From Bacteroidales bacterium (GTDB lineage: Bacteria > Bacteroidota > Bacteroidia > Bacteroidales > VadinHA17), in the NCBI GenBank assembly GCA_046329875.1, contig JAXLTT010000001.1:205619-269618 (forward strand): 64,000 bases of DNA. Direction: 5' to 3'. The number at the start of each line of letters is the position of its first letter. Positions within the stretch are counted from its first letter, which is position 1. Positions 3,292-52,710 of the stretch are shown here, piece after piece. Made by a program: the position numbers and the translations under genes. The notes under the pieces were generated by a model. The model saw nothing but the letters and a program-made list of their open reading frames with translations, did not search any database and had not been told where the DNA came from.

Positions 3292-3489
3292 CTATATCTC
3301 GTTTCTGCTGTAGAGTAAACCTATCAGCCTCTCTCCCATTAAATCGGCAGCAGAGGTGTCTGTCTTACCCAGGAAATTGAGGACATCACTGAATTCTCCG
3401 GCAAAGCCCCAGGCATCATCATAGATGTCTGTTTCATCAGTTTTTATTTCCCCGTATTTAATAAAGCGTGTAGAGGTGTTATTCATAGG
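3292..3489 (-). CDS. Small acidic hypothetical protein downstream of the ECF sigma gene
   Basis: 65 aa from the ATG at 3489 (the track ORF starts at a TTG at 3495). It is co-directional with the sigma gene and 54 nt downstream of it. No TM segment and no recognisable domain. Confidence 0.35.
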   Translation of the reverse strand, partial: PMNNTSTRFIKYGEIKTDETDIYDDAWGFAGEFSDVLNFLGKTDTSAADLMGERLIGLLYSRNEI

Positions 3490-3543
3490 CAACAAAGTTT
3501 GTTACCATGATAACGTGACTGACGCTTTATTATTGCCGGAATG

Positions 3544-23843: not shown

Positions 23844-23871
23844 CCTTTCGCCTTTTGCCGTTCGCCTTTAC
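23844..23871. repeat. Solo heptamer array (CCTTTCG CCTTTTG CCGTTCG CCTTTAC)
   Basis: Four tandem 7-mers lie in the 38-nt gap between the methyltransferase start and the S41 peptidase stop, running into that stop codon. Confidence 0.7.
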
Positions 23872-28413: not shown

Positions 28414-30414
28414 CTATTTCTTGGAAGATTTGTTCTGTTTTTCTTCCATTTCCTCTTTCAGTGCAGCAAGGTCAGTTATATCGCCAAGTGTAGTCTTTTC
28501 GATATTGGATTTAACCTTTTTAGCAGCCTTCTTGACGGTTTCAGTCTCGGTTTTCTTAACTGCAGCCTCAACAGCTCTCTTCTCATCTTCGAAAATACGG
28601 CTGTGTGAAACGATTATCTTCTTGGCTGATTTGTTGAATTCGATAACCTTGAACATGAGTTTCTCGTCAACTTTCGACATGCTTCCGTCTTCTTTCACAA
28701 GGTGTTTTGGAGTAGCAAAACCTTCAACACCGTAAGGAAGGGCAACTATTGCACCTTTTTCAAAGAGTTCAACTACTGTACCTTCATGAACTGAGTCGAT
28801 AGTGAAGATATTCTCGAATACATCCCATGGGTTCTCTTCGAGCTGCTTGTGACCAAGGCTGAGTCTCCTGTTTTCTTTATCTATTTCGAGGACAACAACT
28901 TCGATCTCTGCATCAATAGCTGTGAATTCAGCCGGGTGCTTGATTTTCCTTGTCCATGAAAGGTCTGAGATGTGGATAAGACCATCAACGCCTTCCTCGA
29001 TTTCAACAAAAACACCGAAGTTGGTGAAGTTGCGGACTTTTGCAGTGTGCCTGCTGCCTACTGCATACCTCTCTTCAATATTCTGCCATGGATCGGGCTT
29101 AAGCTGCTTGATGCCAAGTGACATTTTCCTTTCGGTACGGTCGAGTGTAAGAACAACTGCTTCAACCTCGTCACCAACCTTCATGAACTCCTGTGCGCTG
29201 CGGAGATGCTGTGACCATGACATTTCAGAAACATGGATAAGACCTTCAACACCGGTAGCTATTTCAACGAATGCACCGTAATCGGCCATCACAACAACCT
29301 TGCCTTTAACTTTATCACCAACCTTGAGGTTAGGATCTACTGAATCCCAAGGATGTGGGGTAAGCTGCTTGAGACCAAGGGCGATTCTCTTCTTGTCATC
29401 ATCAAAGTCGAGGATAACAACATTGAGTTTCTGGTCAAGCTGAACGATCTCTTCGGGATGGTTAACCCTGCCCCATGAGAGGTCTGTAATATGTATAAGC
29501 CCGTCAACACCGCCGAGGTCAATGAATACACCGTATGATGTAATGTTCTTGACAGTTCCTTCAAGAACCTGGCCTTTTTCAAGTTTGGCGATGATCTCTT
29601 TCTTCTGCTGTTCGAGTTCAGCTTCAATAAGGGCTTTATGTGAAACAACCACGTTCTTGAATTCCTGGTTGATCTTGACAACCTTGAATTCCATGGTCTT
29701 GTTAACAAAAATATCGTAATCACGTATTGGTTTGACGTCGATCTGTGAACCCGGGAGGAATGCTTCGATACCAAAGACATCCACAATCATACCGCCTTTT
29801 GTACGGCACTTGATGTAACCGGTGATGATCTCGTCATTTTCAAGGGCTGAATTAACCCTGTCCCATGAATTAAGAGCGCGGGCTTTCTTGTGTGAAAGAA
29901 CGAGCTGTCCTTTCTTGTCTTCCTGGCTCTCAACATATACTTCAACTGTATCCCCAACCTTAAGTCCGGGGTTGTACCTGAATTCGTTCAGGCTCACTAC
30001 ACCTTCAGATTTGTAACCGATGTTAATAACAACTTCGCGGTTTGTCATCTGGATAACAGTACCCTTGACAACCTCATCAACTGCTATTGTTGAAAGTGTT
30101 TTGTCGTACATTGCCTCATACTCGGTGTATTTAGGCGAGTTACGGAGCTCTTCGCTCTCAAATGCATCCCAGTCAAACTGTTCGTTTGAAACGTGGTGTT
30201 TTTCTTCTGTTTCAGGGGTTTCGGTTTCGTGATGAGCAGCTTTTCTAACTTTCTTCACTTCACCTTCAGCAGCAAATTCTGCTTCGTTCTCAACCTCACC
30301 TGCATTTGTATCTGCAGCGGTTTTTGTTTTTACGGTTTTCTTTACGCTCTTGTCGGCGTTTTCGTTTTTCTCGACCTTTTCAGCTTTGGCCGGTTTTCCT
30401 TTGTTTTCAGTCAT
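28414..30414 (-). CDS. rpsA: 30S ribosomal protein S1 with Lys/Glu-rich terminal extensions
   Basis: 666 aa with six S1 repeats (recurring GLIHISD/GLIHVSE motifs). The first roughly 80 aa and the last roughly 50 aa are low-complexity. Confidence 0.93.
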   Translation of the reverse strand: MTENKGKPAKAEKVEKNENADKSVKKTVKTKTAADTNAGEVENEAEFAAEGEVKKVRKAAHHETETPETEEKHHVSNEQFDWDAFESEELRNSPKYTEYEAMYDKTLSTIAVDEVVKGTVIQMTNREVVINIGYKSEGVVSLNEFRYNPGLKVGDTVEVYVESQEDKKGQLVLSHKKARALNSWDRVNSALENDEIITGYIKCRTKGGMIVDVFGIEAFLPGSQIDVKPIRDYDIFVNKTMEFKVVKINQEFKNVVVSHKALIEAELEQQKKEIIAKLEKGQVLEGTVKNITSYGVFIDLGGVDGLIHITDLSWGRVNHPEEIVQLDQKLNVVILDFDDDKKRIALGLKQLTPHPWDSVDPNLKVGDKVKGKVVVMADYGAFVEIATGVEGLIHVSEMSWSQHLRSAQEFMKVGDEVEAVVLTLDRTERKMSLGIKQLKPDPWQNIEERYAVGSRHTAKVRNFTNFGVFVEIEEGVDGLIHISDLSWTRKIKHPAEFTAIDAEIEVVVLEIDKENRRLSLGHKQLEENPWDVFENIFTIDSVHEGTVVELFEKGAIVALPYGVEGFATPKHLVKEDGSMSKVDEKLMFKVIEFNKSAKKIIVSHSRIFEDEKRAVEAAVKKTETETVKKAAKKVKSNIEKTTLGDITDLAALKEEMEEKQNKSSKK

Positions 30415-30477
30415 GATGTTAAATTAAACTTCTAAAAATTAATAAGTTAGACATTATTTTGAACAAAATTCGGATTG

Positions 30478-30485
30478 CAAAGATA
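30478..30485 (-). promoter_or_regulatory. Putative -7 promoter box (TAnnTTTG) for rpsA
   Basis: The minus strand reads TATCTTTG about 64 nt upstream of the rpsA ATG. Confidence 0.4.
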
Positions 30486-30536
30486 ACTTTTTATTTTGAA
30501 TATAAATGGAATACGAGACTTATTTTCACCATGTTA

Positions 30537-30635
30537 GTCGTGCCGGTCGTGCCGGTCGTGCCAGTCGTGCCAGTCGTGCCAGTCGTGCCGGTCGTGCCAG
30601 TCATGCCAGTCGTGCCAGTCGTGCAGGTCCTGCCA
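30537..30635. repeat. Tandem 9-bp array (GTCGTGCCR, 11 units): left arm of four-helix-bundle cassette 1
   Basis: Counted directly as 11 contiguous 9-mers with a few substitutions (GTCATGCCA, GTCGTGCAG, GTCCTGCCA). Confidence 0.9.
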
Positions 30636-30698
30636 GTTATGAATTGGTTTAATCGAGGCAGATATCGTAACTTTATAAATTAATTAACTCGTGCTAAA

Positions 30699-31091
30699 AT
30701 GGGAACAATTAAGAATTTTGAAGAACTGGCTGTCTGGATTATGGCCAGGGAGATCGCGAATGATATCTACTCAGATCTAAAGAATTGCAGAGATTTTGGA
30801 TTCAGAGATCAGATCACAAGAGCTGGTATTTCGATAATGAATAATATCAGCGAGGGTTTTGGTCGCAATAGCGATACGGAGTTCAGACACTTTCTCAATA
30901 TTTCCAAAGGCTCTGCAACAGAAGTTAAGAGTATGTACTACATTGCTGAAGACCAGGAATATGTCAGTCATGAGACGTCACAGAAAATGCGTGATAAACT
31001 GCAAAGGCTTATTAACAGTCTCGGAACCTTTATGAAGTACCTTAATTCCTCACGACCAGCCCGACCTGCCCGACCTGCAAGACCTGCATGA
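30699..31091 (+). CDS. Four-helix-bundle protein (23S rRNA intervening-sequence protein / Avd-like family)
   Basis: 130 aa with QITRAGISIMNNISEGFGR...FRHFLNISKGSATEV, typical of this family. The C-terminal SRPARPARPARPA is encoded by the right repeat arm. Confidence 0.85.
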   Translation: MGTIKNFEELAVWIMAREIANDIYSDLKNCRDFGFRDQITRAGISIMNNISEGFGRNSDTEFRHFLNISKGSATEVKSMYYIAEDQEYVSHETSQKMRDKLQRLINSLGTFMKYLNSSRPARPARPARPA

Positions 31092-31137
31092 CCCGCAAGA
31101 CCGGCACGACCTGCAAGACCTGCAACACCTGCACGAC
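31053..31137. repeat. Tandem 9-bp array (CGACCTGCA-like, about 9.4 units): right arm, inverted relative to 30537-30635
   Basis: The reverse complement of the unit, once rotated, reads GTCGTGCAG against GTCGTGCCA in the left arm, so 7 of 9 positions per unit are complementary. It overlaps the last 39 nt of the CDS. Confidence 0.88.
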
Positions 31138-31168
31138 TTTTTCCATTTTCATTATTGCCACGTTATAT

Positions 31169-31176
31169 TATCTTTG
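31169..31176 (+). promoter_or_regulatory. Putative -7 promoter box (TAnnTTTG) for ugd
   Basis: TATCTTTG lies 35 nt upstream of the ATG at 31211. Confidence 0.4.
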
Positions 31177-31210: not shown

Positions 31211-32524
31211 ATGAAGATCGCAGTAGTAGGCACAGGTTATGTAGGACTGGTGACAGGAACCTGCTTCTCAGAGACAGGTGTAACGGTTACCTGTGTCGAC
31301 GTCGATAAAGACAAAGTCAGACAGCTTAAAGAGGGGTCTGTTCCCATATATGACCCGGGGCTTGAAGTTATGATGAGAAGGAACATGGAAAAAGGAAGGC
31401 TCCTGTTCACAACAAGTATAAGCGAAGGTATTGAAGGGGCTGAAGCTATTTTCATAGCTGTAGGAACACCTCCGGGAGAAGACGGAAGTGCTGACCTTCA
31501 GCATGTGCTGCAGGTTGCAAAGGAAATCGGCCGGGTAATTACAGGCTACATAGTTGTTGTTATAAAGAGCACTGTCCCTGTGGGAACCTCAAGGAAAGTT
31601 GAAGAGGTAATAAGGAAGGAACTCTCGGCAAGGAATGCAAACATCAGCTTCGACATGGCTTCCAATCCTGAATTCCTTAAAGAAGGATCTGCTGTTGAGG
31701 ACTTCCTGAAGCCTGAAAGGATAGTAATCGGCACTTCAACAGAAGAGGCTGCCTCAATAATGAAGAAACTGTACCAGCCATTTCTGCTGAATAATCACCC
31801 TATCCTGTTTATGGATATTGCCTCATCGGAGATAACCAAATATGCTGCCAATGCGATGCTTGCAACAAGGATCAGTTTCATGAACGAGATCGCTAACCTC
31901 TGTGAGATTCTGGGTGCAGATGTTACACAGGTGCGAAGGGGAATAGGCAGTGACTCAAGAATCGGTAATAAATTTCTTTATGCAGGTACAGGTTACGGCG
32001 GATCATGCTTCCCGAAGGATGTGAAAGCCCTTATAAAAACTGCAAAGGATAATAAGTATGAACTGAAGGTTGTAACTGCTGTTGAAAAGGCAAATGAATA
32101 CCAGAAAGAGGTCCTTTTCAGAAAAATCGAAAAACATTTCGGCAGTCTTAAAGGAATATCTATCTGTATCTGGGGATTGGCATTCAAGCCTCAGACTGAT
32201 GATATAAGGGAAGCATCTTCAATCATCCTGATAAGCATGCTTCTTGAAAAAGGGGCCAGGGTAAAAGCCTATGATCCTGCAGCTGTGAATGAGGCCCGGA
32301 AACTCCTGGGTAACAGGGTTGAGTTTGCTGCCGGACAGTACGAGGCCGCTGAAAGTGCCGATGCAATTGCACTTATGACCGAATGGCCTGAATTCAGGAT
32401 TCCTGATTTTAACAAACTGTCGGAAACAATGAAGCAAAAAGTTGTCTTTGACGGGAGGAATATTTACGACCCGGCAGAAGTAAGGAAAGCCGGATTTACC
32501 TATTACGGAATTGGAAGAAAATAA
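31211..32524 (+). CDS. ugd: UDP-glucose 6-dehydrogenase
   Basis: 437 aa with MKIAVVGTGYVGLV and the catalytic GGSCFPKD motif. Confidence 0.92.
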   Translation: MKIAVVGTGYVGLVTGTCFSETGVTVTCVDVDKDKVRQLKEGSVPIYDPGLEVMMRRNMEKGRLLFTTSISEGIEGAEAIFIAVGTPPGEDGSADLQHVLQVAKEIGRVITGYIVVVIKSTVPVGTSRKVEEVIRKELSARNANISFDMASNPEFLKEGSAVEDFLKPERIVIGTSTEEAASIMKKLYQPFLLNNHPILFMDIASSEITKYAANAMLATRISFMNEIANLCEILGADVTQVRRGIGSDSRIGNKFLYAGTGYGGSCFPKDVKALIKTAKDNKYELKVVTAVEKANEYQKEVLFRKIEKHFGSLKGISICIWGLAFKPQTDDIREASSIILISMLLEKGARVKAYDPAAVNEARKLLGNRVEFAAGQYEAAESADAIALMTEWPEFRIPDFNKLSETMKQKVVFDGRNIYDPAEVRKAGFTYYGIGRK

Positions 32525-49942: not shown

Positions 49943-49984
49943 CCTTTCGCCTTCTGCCTTCCGCCTTCCGCCTTCTACCTTACT
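49943..49984. repeat. Solo heptamer array (CCTTYYG-like, 6 units)
   Basis: CCTTTCG CCTTCTG CCTTCCG CCTTCCG CCTTCTA CCTTACT. It overlaps the stop codon of the 49980-51905 gene. Confidence 0.8.
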
Positions 49985-52033: not shown

Positions 52034-52096
52034 CCAGGCGGAAGCATGGAAAAACCAGTGGTTTTTCCATGCAAGGTAAAAGTAAAAAGTAAAAAG
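52034..52096. repeat. 63-bp direct repeat, copy 1 (contains the 27-nt palindrome 52045-52071 and the purine heptamer arm)
   Basis: Identical to 52513-52575 except for one base at the palindrome centre (AGT versus ACT). Confidence 0.9.
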
Positions 52097-52103
52097 GAAA
52101 AAG
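52073..52103. repeat. Left arm of four-helix-bundle cassette 2 (purine-rich heptamers)
   Basis: AAGGTAAAAGTAAAAAGTAAAAAGGAAAAAG pairs at 26 of 31 positions with 52469-52499 by manual alignment. It ends 9 nt before the ATG. Confidence 0.85.
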
Positions 52104-52112
52104 TATTGAAAG

Positions 52113-52466
52113 ATGAAAGACAATGATCTTAAAGAGAGGCTTTTTCATTTTGCAACAGGAGTTTTAAAGTTGCTTGGAGAGATCAAAGGTGGCAAAGAAA
52201 TTGATGTGGTTAAATACCAATTATCAAAATCAGCCACATCTGCTGGTGCAAATTATGAAGAAGCTCAAGGTTCTGTGTCAAAAGCTGAATTCATCAGTAA
52301 AGTCAGCATATCGTTAAAGGAGATGAGGGAATCGCATTACTGGCTAAGAATCATAAAAGATTTGAACAAAACTGTGGAGAAAACTGAAAAGATGTTAAAC
52401 GAAAGTGAGGAATTAGGTAAAATATTAGCATCTATTTTAATAAAAGCACGATCAAACCCTTCCTGA
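52113..52466 (+). CDS. Four-helix-bundle protein (23S rRNA intervening-sequence protein / Avd-like family)
   Basis: 117 aa with QLSKSATSAGANYEEAQ...SKAEFISKVSISLKEMRESHYWLRII, typical of the family. Confidence 0.85.
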   Translation: MKDNDLKERLFHFATGVLKLLGEIKGGKEIDVVKYQLSKSATSAGANYEEAQGSVSKAEFISKVSISLKEMRESHYWLRIIKDLNKTVEKTEKMLNESEELGKILASILIKARSNPS

Positions 52467-52468
52467 CA

Positions 52469-52499
52469 CTTTTGCCTTTTACCTTTTACCTTTTACCTT
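52469..52499. repeat. Right arm of four-helix-bundle cassette 2 (CCTTTTA heptamers)
   Basis: CTTTTGCCTTTTACCTTTTACCTTTTACCTT starts 2 nt after the stop codon. Confidence 0.85.
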
Positions 52500-52512: not shown

Positions 52513-52575
52513 CCAGGCGGAAGCATGGAAAAACCACTGGTTTTTCCATGCAAGGTAAAAGTAAAAAGTAAAAAG
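52513..52575. repeat. 63-bp direct repeat, copy 2
   Basis: See copy 1. A third, degenerate copy lacking the palindrome lies at about 52623-52682. Confidence 0.9.
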
Positions 52576-52593
52576 AGGGCCGAGCGTTAATAA

Positions 52594-52613: not shown

Positions 52614-52710
52614 AGTGAGGAGCCAGGCTGCAGGGAGGGCCAGAGCAAGGTAAAAGTTAAAAGGTTAATGTAAAAAGTAAGGAACTTATTACTTACTTTT
52701 AGGCACTGGA

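Follow-up and report, generated by a model that had tools for sequence, protein, structure and literature searches.

The 64,000-nt stretch analysed here, referred to as the window, is part of contig JAXLTT010000001.1 of a Bacteroidales bacterium (GenBank assembly GCA_046329875.1, positions 205,619 to 269,618 of the forward strand). Between the rpsA and ugd genes it carries a small cassette, designated W1, in which a gene for a four-helix-bundle protein of family PF05635 is enclosed by two tandem arrays of 9-bp units that are inverted relative to each other. This locus is a member, lying outside ribosomal RNA (rRNA), of a conserved architecture in which a PF05635 gene occupies the loop of a tandem-repeat hairpin. 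The best overall explanation, which we hold with moderate confidence, is that W1 belongs to a widespread class of gene-in-hairpin cassettes of the type known from the intervening sequences (IVSs) of 23S rRNA, and that its arms act by pairing with each other. The parts of the cassette, all read on the + strand, are as follows.

30499-30511, + strand: outer complementary segment AATATAAATGGAA, pairing with 31141-31153 at the predicted base of the stem (inverted-repeat pair I24, minimum free energy (MFE) fold)
30536-30637, + strand: left arm, 11.3 tandem copies of the 9-bp unit GTCGTGCCR (Tandem Repeats Finder (TRF), pattern search against shuffled sequence)
30699-31091, + strand: four-helix-bundle gene of families PF05635 and TIGR02436, 130 aa (Pfam, NCBIfam)
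31051-31137, + strand: right arm, 9.7 tandem copies of a 9-bp CACGACCTG-like unit, inverted complement of the left arm (TRF, complementarity, folds)
31141-31153, + strand: partner of the outer complementary segment, TTCCATTTTCATT (inverted-repeat pair, MFE fold)

Both arrays have a period of 9 by TRF, with the consensus AGTCGTGCC and 88% matches on the left and the consensus CACGACCTG and 82% matches on the right. All 12 occurrences in the window of the two-unit pattern GTCGTGCCRGTCGTGCC, allowing up to three mismatches, fall within the two arrays, ten on the + strand in the left array and two on the - strand in the right array, compared with 0.06 occurrences in shuffled sequence. Segments 30536-30623 and 31051-31138 are inverted with 74% complementarity over 88 nt, which matches the seven complementary positions per nine-base unit reported in a preliminary description made from the window sequence. 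The stem-plus-ORF fold proposed there is likewise borne out: the arrays pair around the open reading frame (ORF) in the MFE fold of 30500-31170 (-210.5 kcal/mol, z -3.5), and the arms alone, joined by a GAAA loop, reach -106.9 kcal/mol compared with -68.4 kcal/mol in shuffles (z -8.6). The outer segments are 85% complementary over 13 nt and pair in the same MFE fold, a weak similarity that could be due to chance. The ORF starts 61 nt past the left array, its final 41 nt lie inside the right array, and 46 nt of array continue beyond the stop codon.

The encoded protein falls clearly within the four-helix-bundle family associated with IVSs, as had been proposed, matching PF05635 with an E-value of 1.8e-30 (105.7 bits, cutoff 33.8) and TIGR02436 with an E-value of 6.6e-30 (103.5 bits, cutoff 24). 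By sequence it is related to solved folds, with phmmer matches in the PDB to 2GSC (XCC0516; E 2.5e-9 over residues 8-113) and to 2RLD (E 0.005). Of the hidden Markov models (HMMs) suggested for comparison, PF05635 and Avd, the former was matched, whereas the bAvd model PF22296 gave no match, and a tblastn search of phage genomes with the window protein returned no match. Homologues were collected by a scan of one genome per species, giving 80 loci of which all but one are titled Bacteroidales or Bacteroidota; together with one contig of the same species and the two cassettes of the window these make up the 83 Bacteroidales loci considered below. The homologues have a median length of 119 aa, and in most loci 0-12 nt separate their stop codon from the array that follows; in 79 of 83 the stop codon precedes the array, meets its edge or extends no more than 2 nt into it, and only four ORFs run more than 10 nt into it. 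In the window protein, residues ~120-130 form an (ARP)n tail that is the right-arm repeats translated, an accidental, lineage-specific read-through into the right arm rather than a designed feature. The (VVP)n ORF at 30459-30683 is almost wholly the left array read in frame, and both features are thus the by-products of the arrays that they had been taken to be.

The nearest described relatives of this arrangement are the ORF-bearing IVSs of 23S rRNA in Leptospira and in Coxiella burnetii (S23p), in which terminal inverted repeats likewise form a stem whose loop contains an ORF of the PF05635 family. The Coxiella IVS has a 28-bp terminal stem within which RNase III cleaves. The S23p start is preceded by tandem GACAGAT heptamers, three or four depending on the strain, and it is at the first of these that the 5' cut is made (PMC4990558). 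Cleavage by RNase III has also been determined experimentally in the IVS stems of Leptospira and Salmonella (PMC4990558). W1 shares the terminal inverted repeats that form a stem around a PF05635 ORF, and its 9-mer arms correspond to a further trait seen in IVSs but outside their classical definition, namely arms of short tandem repeats, which are present as heptamers both in the 5' arm region of Coxiella and in an rRNA-borne copy in Azospirillum lipoferum described below. The proposal that W1 has the same architecture as rRNA copies is therefore supported on both counts. Unlike rRNA IVSs, W1 lies outside rRNA between the divergent rpsA and ugd promoters, rather than in helix 9, 25 or 45 of 23S rRNA. 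The flanking genes are rpsA (28414-30414, - strand) and ugd (31211-32524, + strand), and an Rfam scan of the window found no rRNA, a single tRNA and no RNA family at the cassette locus, in agreement with the original placement away from rRNA. Its arms of ~90-100 nt of 9-mers, with a promoter-like box inside them, also differ from the 28-bp stem of Coxiella. The description of the cassette as an orphan was mistaken, since sites outside rRNA are usual for the family, accounting for all 83 Bacteroidales loci and six of the seven plasmid loci listed below.

Arrays were found upstream of the gene in 82 of the 83 Bacteroidales loci, downstream in 78 and on both sides in 77. Most loci come from metagenome-assembled genomes, in which tandem arrays are error-prone, and orthologous loci cannot be counted as independent observations. 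Left and right arms share the same period in every one of the 69 loci with at least three copies per side (41 at 8/8, 25 at 9/9 and 3 at 7/7), and the complementarity of their consensus units is 0.856 within loci, compared with 0.741 when loci are paired by permutation and 0.556 when the units are shuffled. A survey of short-period arrays across 526 kb identified 303 arrays, which make up 92 inverted pairs; in 69 of these the partners are separated by 300-600 bp. Those additional pairs in the flanks that have loops of 300-600 bp surround PF05635 ORFs belonging to several divergent subfamilies, with different units in each case, whereas about ten pairs enclose no gene and stand back to back around loops of 6-80 nt. 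A tblastn search against finished plasmids returned 15 records, and all seven that were examined, spanning the three phyla Bacteroidota, Cyanobacteriota and Alphaproteobacteria, have inverted heptamer arrays around an annotated four-helix-bundle gene.

L082, Riemerella anatipestifer: arm units GGTTTAA and TAAACCT
L083, Nostoc sp. ATCC 53789: arm units GGGAAAA and CCCTTTT
L084, Geminocystis sp.: arm units AAAAGGG and CTTTTCC
L085, Azospirillum lipoferum: arm units GAGGACG and GTCTTCT
L086, Anabaena sp. 90, between cas6 and cas4: arm units GGTGACA (about 39 copies, upstream) and CTGTCAC
L087 and L088, two plasmids of Nostoc punctiforme: arm units TCAGGAG and CTGACTC

The heptamers of the Nostoc and Anabaena cassettes are presumably the short tandemly repeated repetitive (STRR) heptamers of cyanobacteria (Mazel et al. 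1990). The Azospirillum cassette sits inside a large-subunit (LSU) rRNA gene according to Rfam, and its position points to an insertion in the helix-45 region. In Anabaena sp. 90 the cassette occupies positions 629-1471 of L086, from plasmid pANA02, within a type I-D CRISPR-cas operon between cas6 and cas4. This placement may explain why PF05635 has been scored as CRISPR-associated in large surveys; the family has been reported as CRISPR-linked (PMC10910872), and where it appears associated with CRISPR or other systems, the insertion of a cassette may be all that lies behind this.

A sample selected independently of the arms was obtained by scanning metagenome contigs with a degenerate DNA pattern back-translated from the motif IPANIAEG. 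All 120 matches were PF05635-like, and among the 88 with enough flanking sequence, complementary equal-period arrays stood on both sides of 55-56 genes (51 with heptamers and 4 with octamers), or ~63%, which is a lower bound for this diverse set as the array criteria miss arms with indels or mixed periods. The units are diverse, with only occasional repeats between loci, and are often perfectly complementary within a locus. Size-similar control ORFs had array pairs in none of 311 cases on the same metagenome contigs and in none of 26 in the window; in the Bacteroidales flanks 5 of 126 control ORFs had array pairs, a count that by its size would fit the extra cassettes there. These numbers bear on whether W1 is merely a chance pairing of two simple repeats or an assembly artefact, an idea to which short-read assemblers' mishandling of tandem arrays and the breaks of several contigs at the right arm lend some colour. 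The arrangement recurs in six independent assemblies of the species, in finished plasmids and in ~130 further loci, and rates in shuffles and control ORFs are near zero; this explanation is refuted by replication across assemblies and taxa and retains next to no probability. Contigs L092, L094 and L095 of the window's species start inside the right arm, and many homologues lie on contigs of ~1 kb. Arrays thus appear to break short-read assemblies, which would lead to cassettes being undercounted in metagenome-assembled genomes, and (ARP)n-like tails and (VVP)n-like ORFs are to be regarded as annotation artefacts.

Comparison of orthologous sites reveals how the arms change. By BLAST of their flanks the Bacteroidales loci fall into about ten groups sharing both flanks at 72-90% identity, and within such groups period and unit are altered on both arms at once. 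In group B the two arms are built of 9-mers in two genomes and of 8-mers in four; group G contains the units GTCTTGCG, GTCTGCTG and GTCTTCTG, each matched by its own opposite arm; and in group D a switch from GTCTTGCR to GTCTGAAG, that is from TTGCR to TGAAG, has taken place on both arms. The arms conserve an equal period and mutual complementarity, and not sequence. No common motif was found when one was sought: only the W1-like group shares GTCnTGC, and units elsewhere are unrelated. This pattern argues against a shared sequence-specific binding protein or transposase, and for function or maintenance through arms that pair with or copy each other. Over shorter times the arrays are unstable. 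Among six assemblies of the window's species, in which Ugd is identical and the flanks nearly so, the left arm comprises 9, 10 or 11 units and the right arm shows substitutions at the level of its units; three of the species' contigs break off within the right arm. The comparison of unit number across strains that had been recommended thus revealed variation, in counts that may include short-read assembly error.

The same comparison weighs on the suggestion that the arrays are iterons, bound by the encoded four-helix-bundle protein for autoregulation or packaging, or by a host nucleoid protein such as IHF or HU. The arrays are tandem and periodic, the TCGTGC of the leader preceding the gene resembles the commonest unit, GTCGTGC, and Avd-type relatives of the protein have been reported to bind nucleic acids. 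In Geobacter metallireducens, paired octamer and heptamer arrays were named global regulator sites and read as sites for IHF or HU, many of them beside IS110 or IS481 (PMC2700814). The units are, however, essentially unrelated between loci (GTCGTGCC, AAAAGTA, GGGAAAA, GGTGACA, TCAGGAG, CAGGTTA and others) and are replaced within orthologous groups although the protein is conserved there; an equal period and complementarity are kept without any motif, and the leader is retained whatever the unit. Binding to iterons is accordingly a very improbable explanation of the arms.

The cassette is old at its sites. Within orthologous groups the gene has a ratio of nonsynonymous to synonymous divergence (dN/dS) of 0.06-0.09 at dS 1.5-2.1, indicating that the cassette has long been in place under purifying selection, unlike the Coxiella IVS ORF, which is reported to be decaying and untranslated in an IVS regarded as a horizontally acquired selfish element (PMC4990558). 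The rpsA-ugd site itself has seen turnover among relatives of the window's species, as follows.

L096, Ugd 80% identical to that of the window: gene-less 8-mer hairpin at the same position (GTCTTGCG... and ...GACCGCAG), 3468-3528, -40.7 kcal/mol, z -6.0
L102, Ugd 77% identical: second solo 8-mer hairpin with no gene, 1347-1430
L098, Ugd 77% identical: 9-mer arms enclosing a flipped remnant, the C-terminal half of a PF05635 gene encoded on the other strand, 1166-1418
L101, Ugd 81% identical: no arrays, other GC-rich hairpins, 340-540

Such turnover, with the site occupied, solo, flipped or array-free, would be expected of a mobile or once-mobile element whose arrays are terminal inverted repeats or insertion footprints, the rRNA, cas and intergenic copies having been inserted by machinery acting in trans. 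The many copies per genome at unrelated sites, including those inside 23S rRNA and between cas6 and cas4, the view of the IVS as a horizontally acquired selfish element (PMC4990558) and the IS110 and IS481 elements at paired octamer arrays of Geobacter (PMC2700814 supplement) are in line with this. No transposase ORF was identified in or beside the cassette and no recombinase gene within ~4 kb, no target-site duplication or direct repeat is visible at the outer borders 30536/31137 (...CCATGTTA| and |TTTTTCCA...), and the locus does not qualify as a transposable element or miniature inverted-repeat transposable element. Arm sequences differ between copies even within one genome, as with the 9-mer and 7-mer arms in the window, so that no single end-binding enzyme fits, and cassettes have kept to orthologous sites while dS rose above 1.5 and selection was strongly purifying (dN/dS ~0.07), which also speaks against mobility. 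Mobility, which had been raised as a possibility for W1, therefore finds little support beyond the turnover at rpsA-ugd (solo hairpins, a flipped remnant and one array-free relative), and as an explanation of the arrays it is improbable.

The consensus of the Bacteroidetes -7 promoter element is TAnnTTTG, and matches to it, together with a conserved leader, are found at the following positions around the W1 gene.

30478-30485, - strand: TATCTTTG, a perfect and putative -7 box for rpsA, pointing away from the cassette (read from the sequence)
30668-30675, + strand: TAACTTTA, a motif resembling the Bacteroidetes -7 box, between the left arm and the start codon, conserved in homologous gaps, with a putative promoter function
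30686-30698, + strand: conserved leader AACTCGTGCTAAA directly 5' of the ATG (homologue loci)
31169-31176, + strand: TATCTTTG, a perfect and putative -7 box for ugd, downstream of the right arm (read from the sequence)

The pattern TAnnTTT[AG] occurs in 47 of 80 homologous gaps between left arm and ATG, compared with 18% of shuffles, and ends a median of 27 nt before the ATG (interquartile range 26-30.5), in gaps that have a median of ~50 nt in the W1-like subfamily. Most of the 80 homologue loci retain the leader AAA[TC]CGTGCTAAAATG, regardless of the arm unit. The TAACTTTA box is thus probably the promoter of the cassette gene itself. The ugd -7 box TATCTTTG is conserved in L096, L097, L098, L101 and L102, the region of the rpsA -7 box is conserved in relatives, and no intrinsic terminator was predicted between the cassette gene and ugd. 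The ~110 nt upstream of rpsA (30415-30535; TAAAAATTAATAAGTTAGACATTATTTTG...TTGCAAAGATA...) are nearly unchanged in L096, L098, L101 and L102, in which Ugd is only 77-81% identical, and this stretch is probably the rpsA promoter plus an autoregulatory leader.

In the explanation favoured here, the arms would act through pairing with each other and not through their own sequence. An RNA spanning the cassette would form an imperfect duplex of ~85 bp between the arms; RNase III cuts such duplexes in the rRNA-borne copies, by which the cassette may be removed from, or insulated against, host transcripts. At the DNA level, the arms may slip, changing copy number, and recombine by inversion and gene conversion, which would keep them alike, and in this Bacteroidales subfamily the gene seems to have gained its own promoter inside the arms. 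As cleavage of the rRNA copies by RNase III is the only experimentally supported activity of such arms, it is taken as the most likely ancestral and general mechanism. It has been demonstrated for rRNA copies in other species, and whether RNase III acts at this particular locus is uncertain. Because W1 is wedged between the divergent rpsA and ugd promoters and has a promoter-like box inside its arms, the full RNA stem is probably rare here. The analysis demonstrates the anatomy of the cassette, its family and its generality, the co-evolution of the arms, their inversions, and the age of the gene and the purifying selection on it; RNA pairing and RNase III cleavage outside rRNA, promoter activity and the role of the protein are inferred.

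A role in the sense transcript is better matched by cassettes of other groups. Among diverse metagenomic loci outside the W1 group, the upstream arm is purine-rich on the coding strand in 49 of 54 (p 4e-10), and across the diverse loci L103-L222 the upstream arm is G/purine-rich on that strand (0.66, compared with 0.36 for the other arm), with AGG- or GGAG-like units frequent. This polarity fits a role in the sense transcript. The W1-like Bacteroidales group lacks it (0.47 compared with 0.55) and has instead the larger gap with its promoter-like box. In the cyanobacterial plasmid loci and in a second cassette of the window, 3-34 nt separate the upstream arm from the start codon, so that a promoter would have hardly any space; the distance is 20-32 nt or more in Riemerella and Azospirillum.

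Several observations weigh against pairing of the arms in RNA at W1 and its close relatives. Both rpsA and ugd are transcribed away from the cassette, each from a perfect -7 box outside the arms, and the gene's own mRNA would lack the left arm because the position-conserved -7-like box sits inside the arms. No excess of G-U-compatible mismatches between arms was found on the sense strand, either in the Bacteroidales set (106 on the + strand compared with 187 on the - strand) or in the diverse metagenomic set (69 compared with 81), and the W1 arms fold better as antisense RNA (-120 kcal/mol compared with -97 kcal/mol). In the Bacteroidales subfamily, the orientation of the cassette is random with respect to its neighbours (upstream 32 + and 28 -, downstream 25 + and 39 -), so dependence on host read-through is not evident there, and a requirement for co-orientation with neighbouring genes was rejected for this subfamily; the median distance between array and neighbouring gene is 52 nt on the upstream side and 24 nt on the downstream side. 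The copy numbers of the two arms are uncorrelated (rho 0.15), about one third of the 88 motif-selected family members had no array pair by the criteria used, and gene conversion between the arms could keep them complementary without selection on structure.

The main rival builds on these observations and places the arms at the level of DNA only, where slippage-prone inverted repeats would recombine, flip the gene and stay alike through gene conversion or template switching; the RNA stem would be incidental at loci outside rRNA, and the cassette might serve as an occasional orientation switch or its arms form DNA hairpins or cruciforms. It would account for the concerted evolution of the arms, for the inversions and for the lack of a wobble signal. 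At two orthologous sites the cassette is turned round with respect to its two flanks (L062 compared with L018, L023, L039, L047 and L048; L025 compared with L034 and L038), and the remnant in L098 lies on the opposite strand at the site of W1. The random orientation, the lack of G-U asymmetry in either data set, the promoter-like box inside the arms, the variation of copy number within the species and the persistence of gene-less solo hairpins are all compatible with it. As in an inverton, inverted repeats flank the segment. Both orientations occur between species at three orthologous sites; the orientation is the same in all six assemblies of the window's species, no recombinase lies within ~4 kb, and arms that are 74-85% identical in blocks of 7-9 bp are poor substrates for homologous recombination. 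A purely DNA-level role also leaves unexplained the specificity for PF05635 (none of the 311 control ORFs), the retention of copies inside rRNA, where cleavage of the stem by RNase III has been demonstrated (PMC4990558), and the purine-rich polarity of the upstream arm. We regard it as the less likely of the two explanations.

Other systems resemble the pairing cassette proposed here in part. PF05635 is the commonest Pfam family near reverse transcriptases of diversity-generating retroelements (DGRs), and 2GSC aligns with the Avd protein 4DWL (PMC10053308). W1 and DGR Avd thus share a homologous family of small four-helix-bundle folds, in contrast to which W1 has no neighbouring reverse transcriptase (~4 kb) and no match to the bAvd model. 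The families encoded within ~4 kb are STAS, S1, UDPG dehydrogenase, RfbA, RfbC, RmlD and PGM; no reverse transcriptase is among them, and no template or variable repeats were noted, though no search was aimed at these. DGR Avd genes are not known to be enclosed by inverted tandem arrays. In RNase III processing stems, such as those of rRNA operons and of phage T7 early mRNA, a long-range duplex likewise brackets a unit for release; the W1 duplex differs in consisting of tandem repeats with periodic mismatches, private to each locus, and its processing is hypothetical. Integron attC sites and the palindromes of repetitive extragenic palindromic (REP) sequences and bacterial interspersed mosaic elements (BIMEs) are similar in being imperfect inverted repeats in which pairing is conserved rather than sequence, and the invertible promoters of Bacteroides in having inverted repeats around a segment able to flip. 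Unlike all of these, the cassette has no integrase, RAYT or invertase nearby, its arms are tandem arrays, and it encloses a complete gene of one family.

Short tandem repeats of 7-8 nt, GGGGAYT in Nostoc among them, have been described as arrays of 3-30 copies that for the most part lie between genes and frequently form convergent pairs, one on each strand (PMC4692102, PMC2700814); the convergent GGGAATC pairs of Xanthomonas were interpreted as G-quadruplex formers (PMC4692102). The Nostoc and Anabaena cassettes identified here use such heptamers, and a supplement lists an array of four GGGAATC over the annotated start of XCC0516, the PF05635 protein solved as 2GSC (PMC4692102 supplement). Unlike the present cassettes, those repeats are not linked in the papers to PF05635 genes, and many of their arrays are single or gene-less. 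The pieces are thus known separately, and the general rule linking PF05635 genes to inverted arrays is apparently unstated: we found partial observations and no published statement that inverted tandem arrays flank PF05635 genes, in a search whose coverage was incomplete for subscription journals and family comments, so that an earlier mention is possible.

If the rule holds, it would tie together the nature of ORF-bearing rRNA IVSs and the reason for their stems, provide an origin for many of the paired heptamer and octamer arrays in bacterial genomes, and explain the occurrence of PF05635 genes in places as unrelated as rRNA, cas operons and polysaccharide loci. It also offers a testable model, a sequence-independent hairpin that would bracket a gene with RNase III as the candidate processing enzyme, and cultured carriers of such cassettes are available in Riemerella, Nostoc and Xanthomonas. 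In its broadest form, PF05635 genes with private inverted arrays would constitute a single phylum-spanning class, comprising rRNA IVSs, many of the paired 7-8-nt arrays of cyanobacteria, Xanthomonas and Geobacter, and the gene-less hairpins that persist at such sites. Their arms would be actively regenerated by slippage and inter-arm copying, possibly helped by the Avd-like protein working on the hairpin that encloses its gene, and would serve as a sequence-independent device for self-excision or insulation inside any transcript, from 23S rRNA to cas operons. This full version is speculative and, taken as a whole, rather doubtful.

Some loci carry further rearrangements. In L049, a GIY-YIG gene was considered as an alternative cargo between the arms and rejected, as it belongs to a nested 305-bp insertion into the PF05635 gene. 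This mini-element (912-1217) encodes a 106-aa GIY-YIG protein (PF01541, E 3.4e-17), ends in a 14-bp perfect inverted repeat (TGCCCTGTGAAATA and TATTTCACAGGGCA) and is inserted at the conserved AEG motif; the orthologous gene of L051 is intact. In L014 (834-938 and 2838-2968) and L016 (2785-2944) the arms are nested or stacked. There, upstream of the gene, a left-type array leads directly into a right-type array built of another unit, which suggests that arms formed or decayed several times over at a single site.

Within the window, two unpartnered heptamer arrays, CCTTCCG x 4.7 (49943-49981) and CCTTTCG x 3.7 (23844-23869), have neither an inverted partner nearby nor a PF05635 gene. A local HMM scan identified two PF05635 ORFs in the window and no others, the W1 gene and that of a second cassette composed as follows.

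52078-52105, + strand: left arm, four copies of the 7-mer AAAAGTA (TRF, sequence)
52113-52466, + strand: divergent PF05635 gene, 117 aa (Pfam E 1.3e-15, alignment)
52469-52499, + strand: right arm, 4.4 copies of the 7-mer CTTTTAC, beginning 2 nt past the stop codon (TRF, inverted-pair survey)

The second protein scores 58 bits against PF05635 and is 19% identical to that of W1. Its cassette is flanked by a direct duplication of ~60 nt (52036-52095 and 52514-52576), each duplicate containing a perfect hairpin (CATGGAAAAACCAGTGGTTTTTCCATG) and then a left-type AAAAGTA array. Additional left-type arrays are located at 52557-52575 and 52647-52677, and the region downstream of the second cassette resembles stacked arm remnants.

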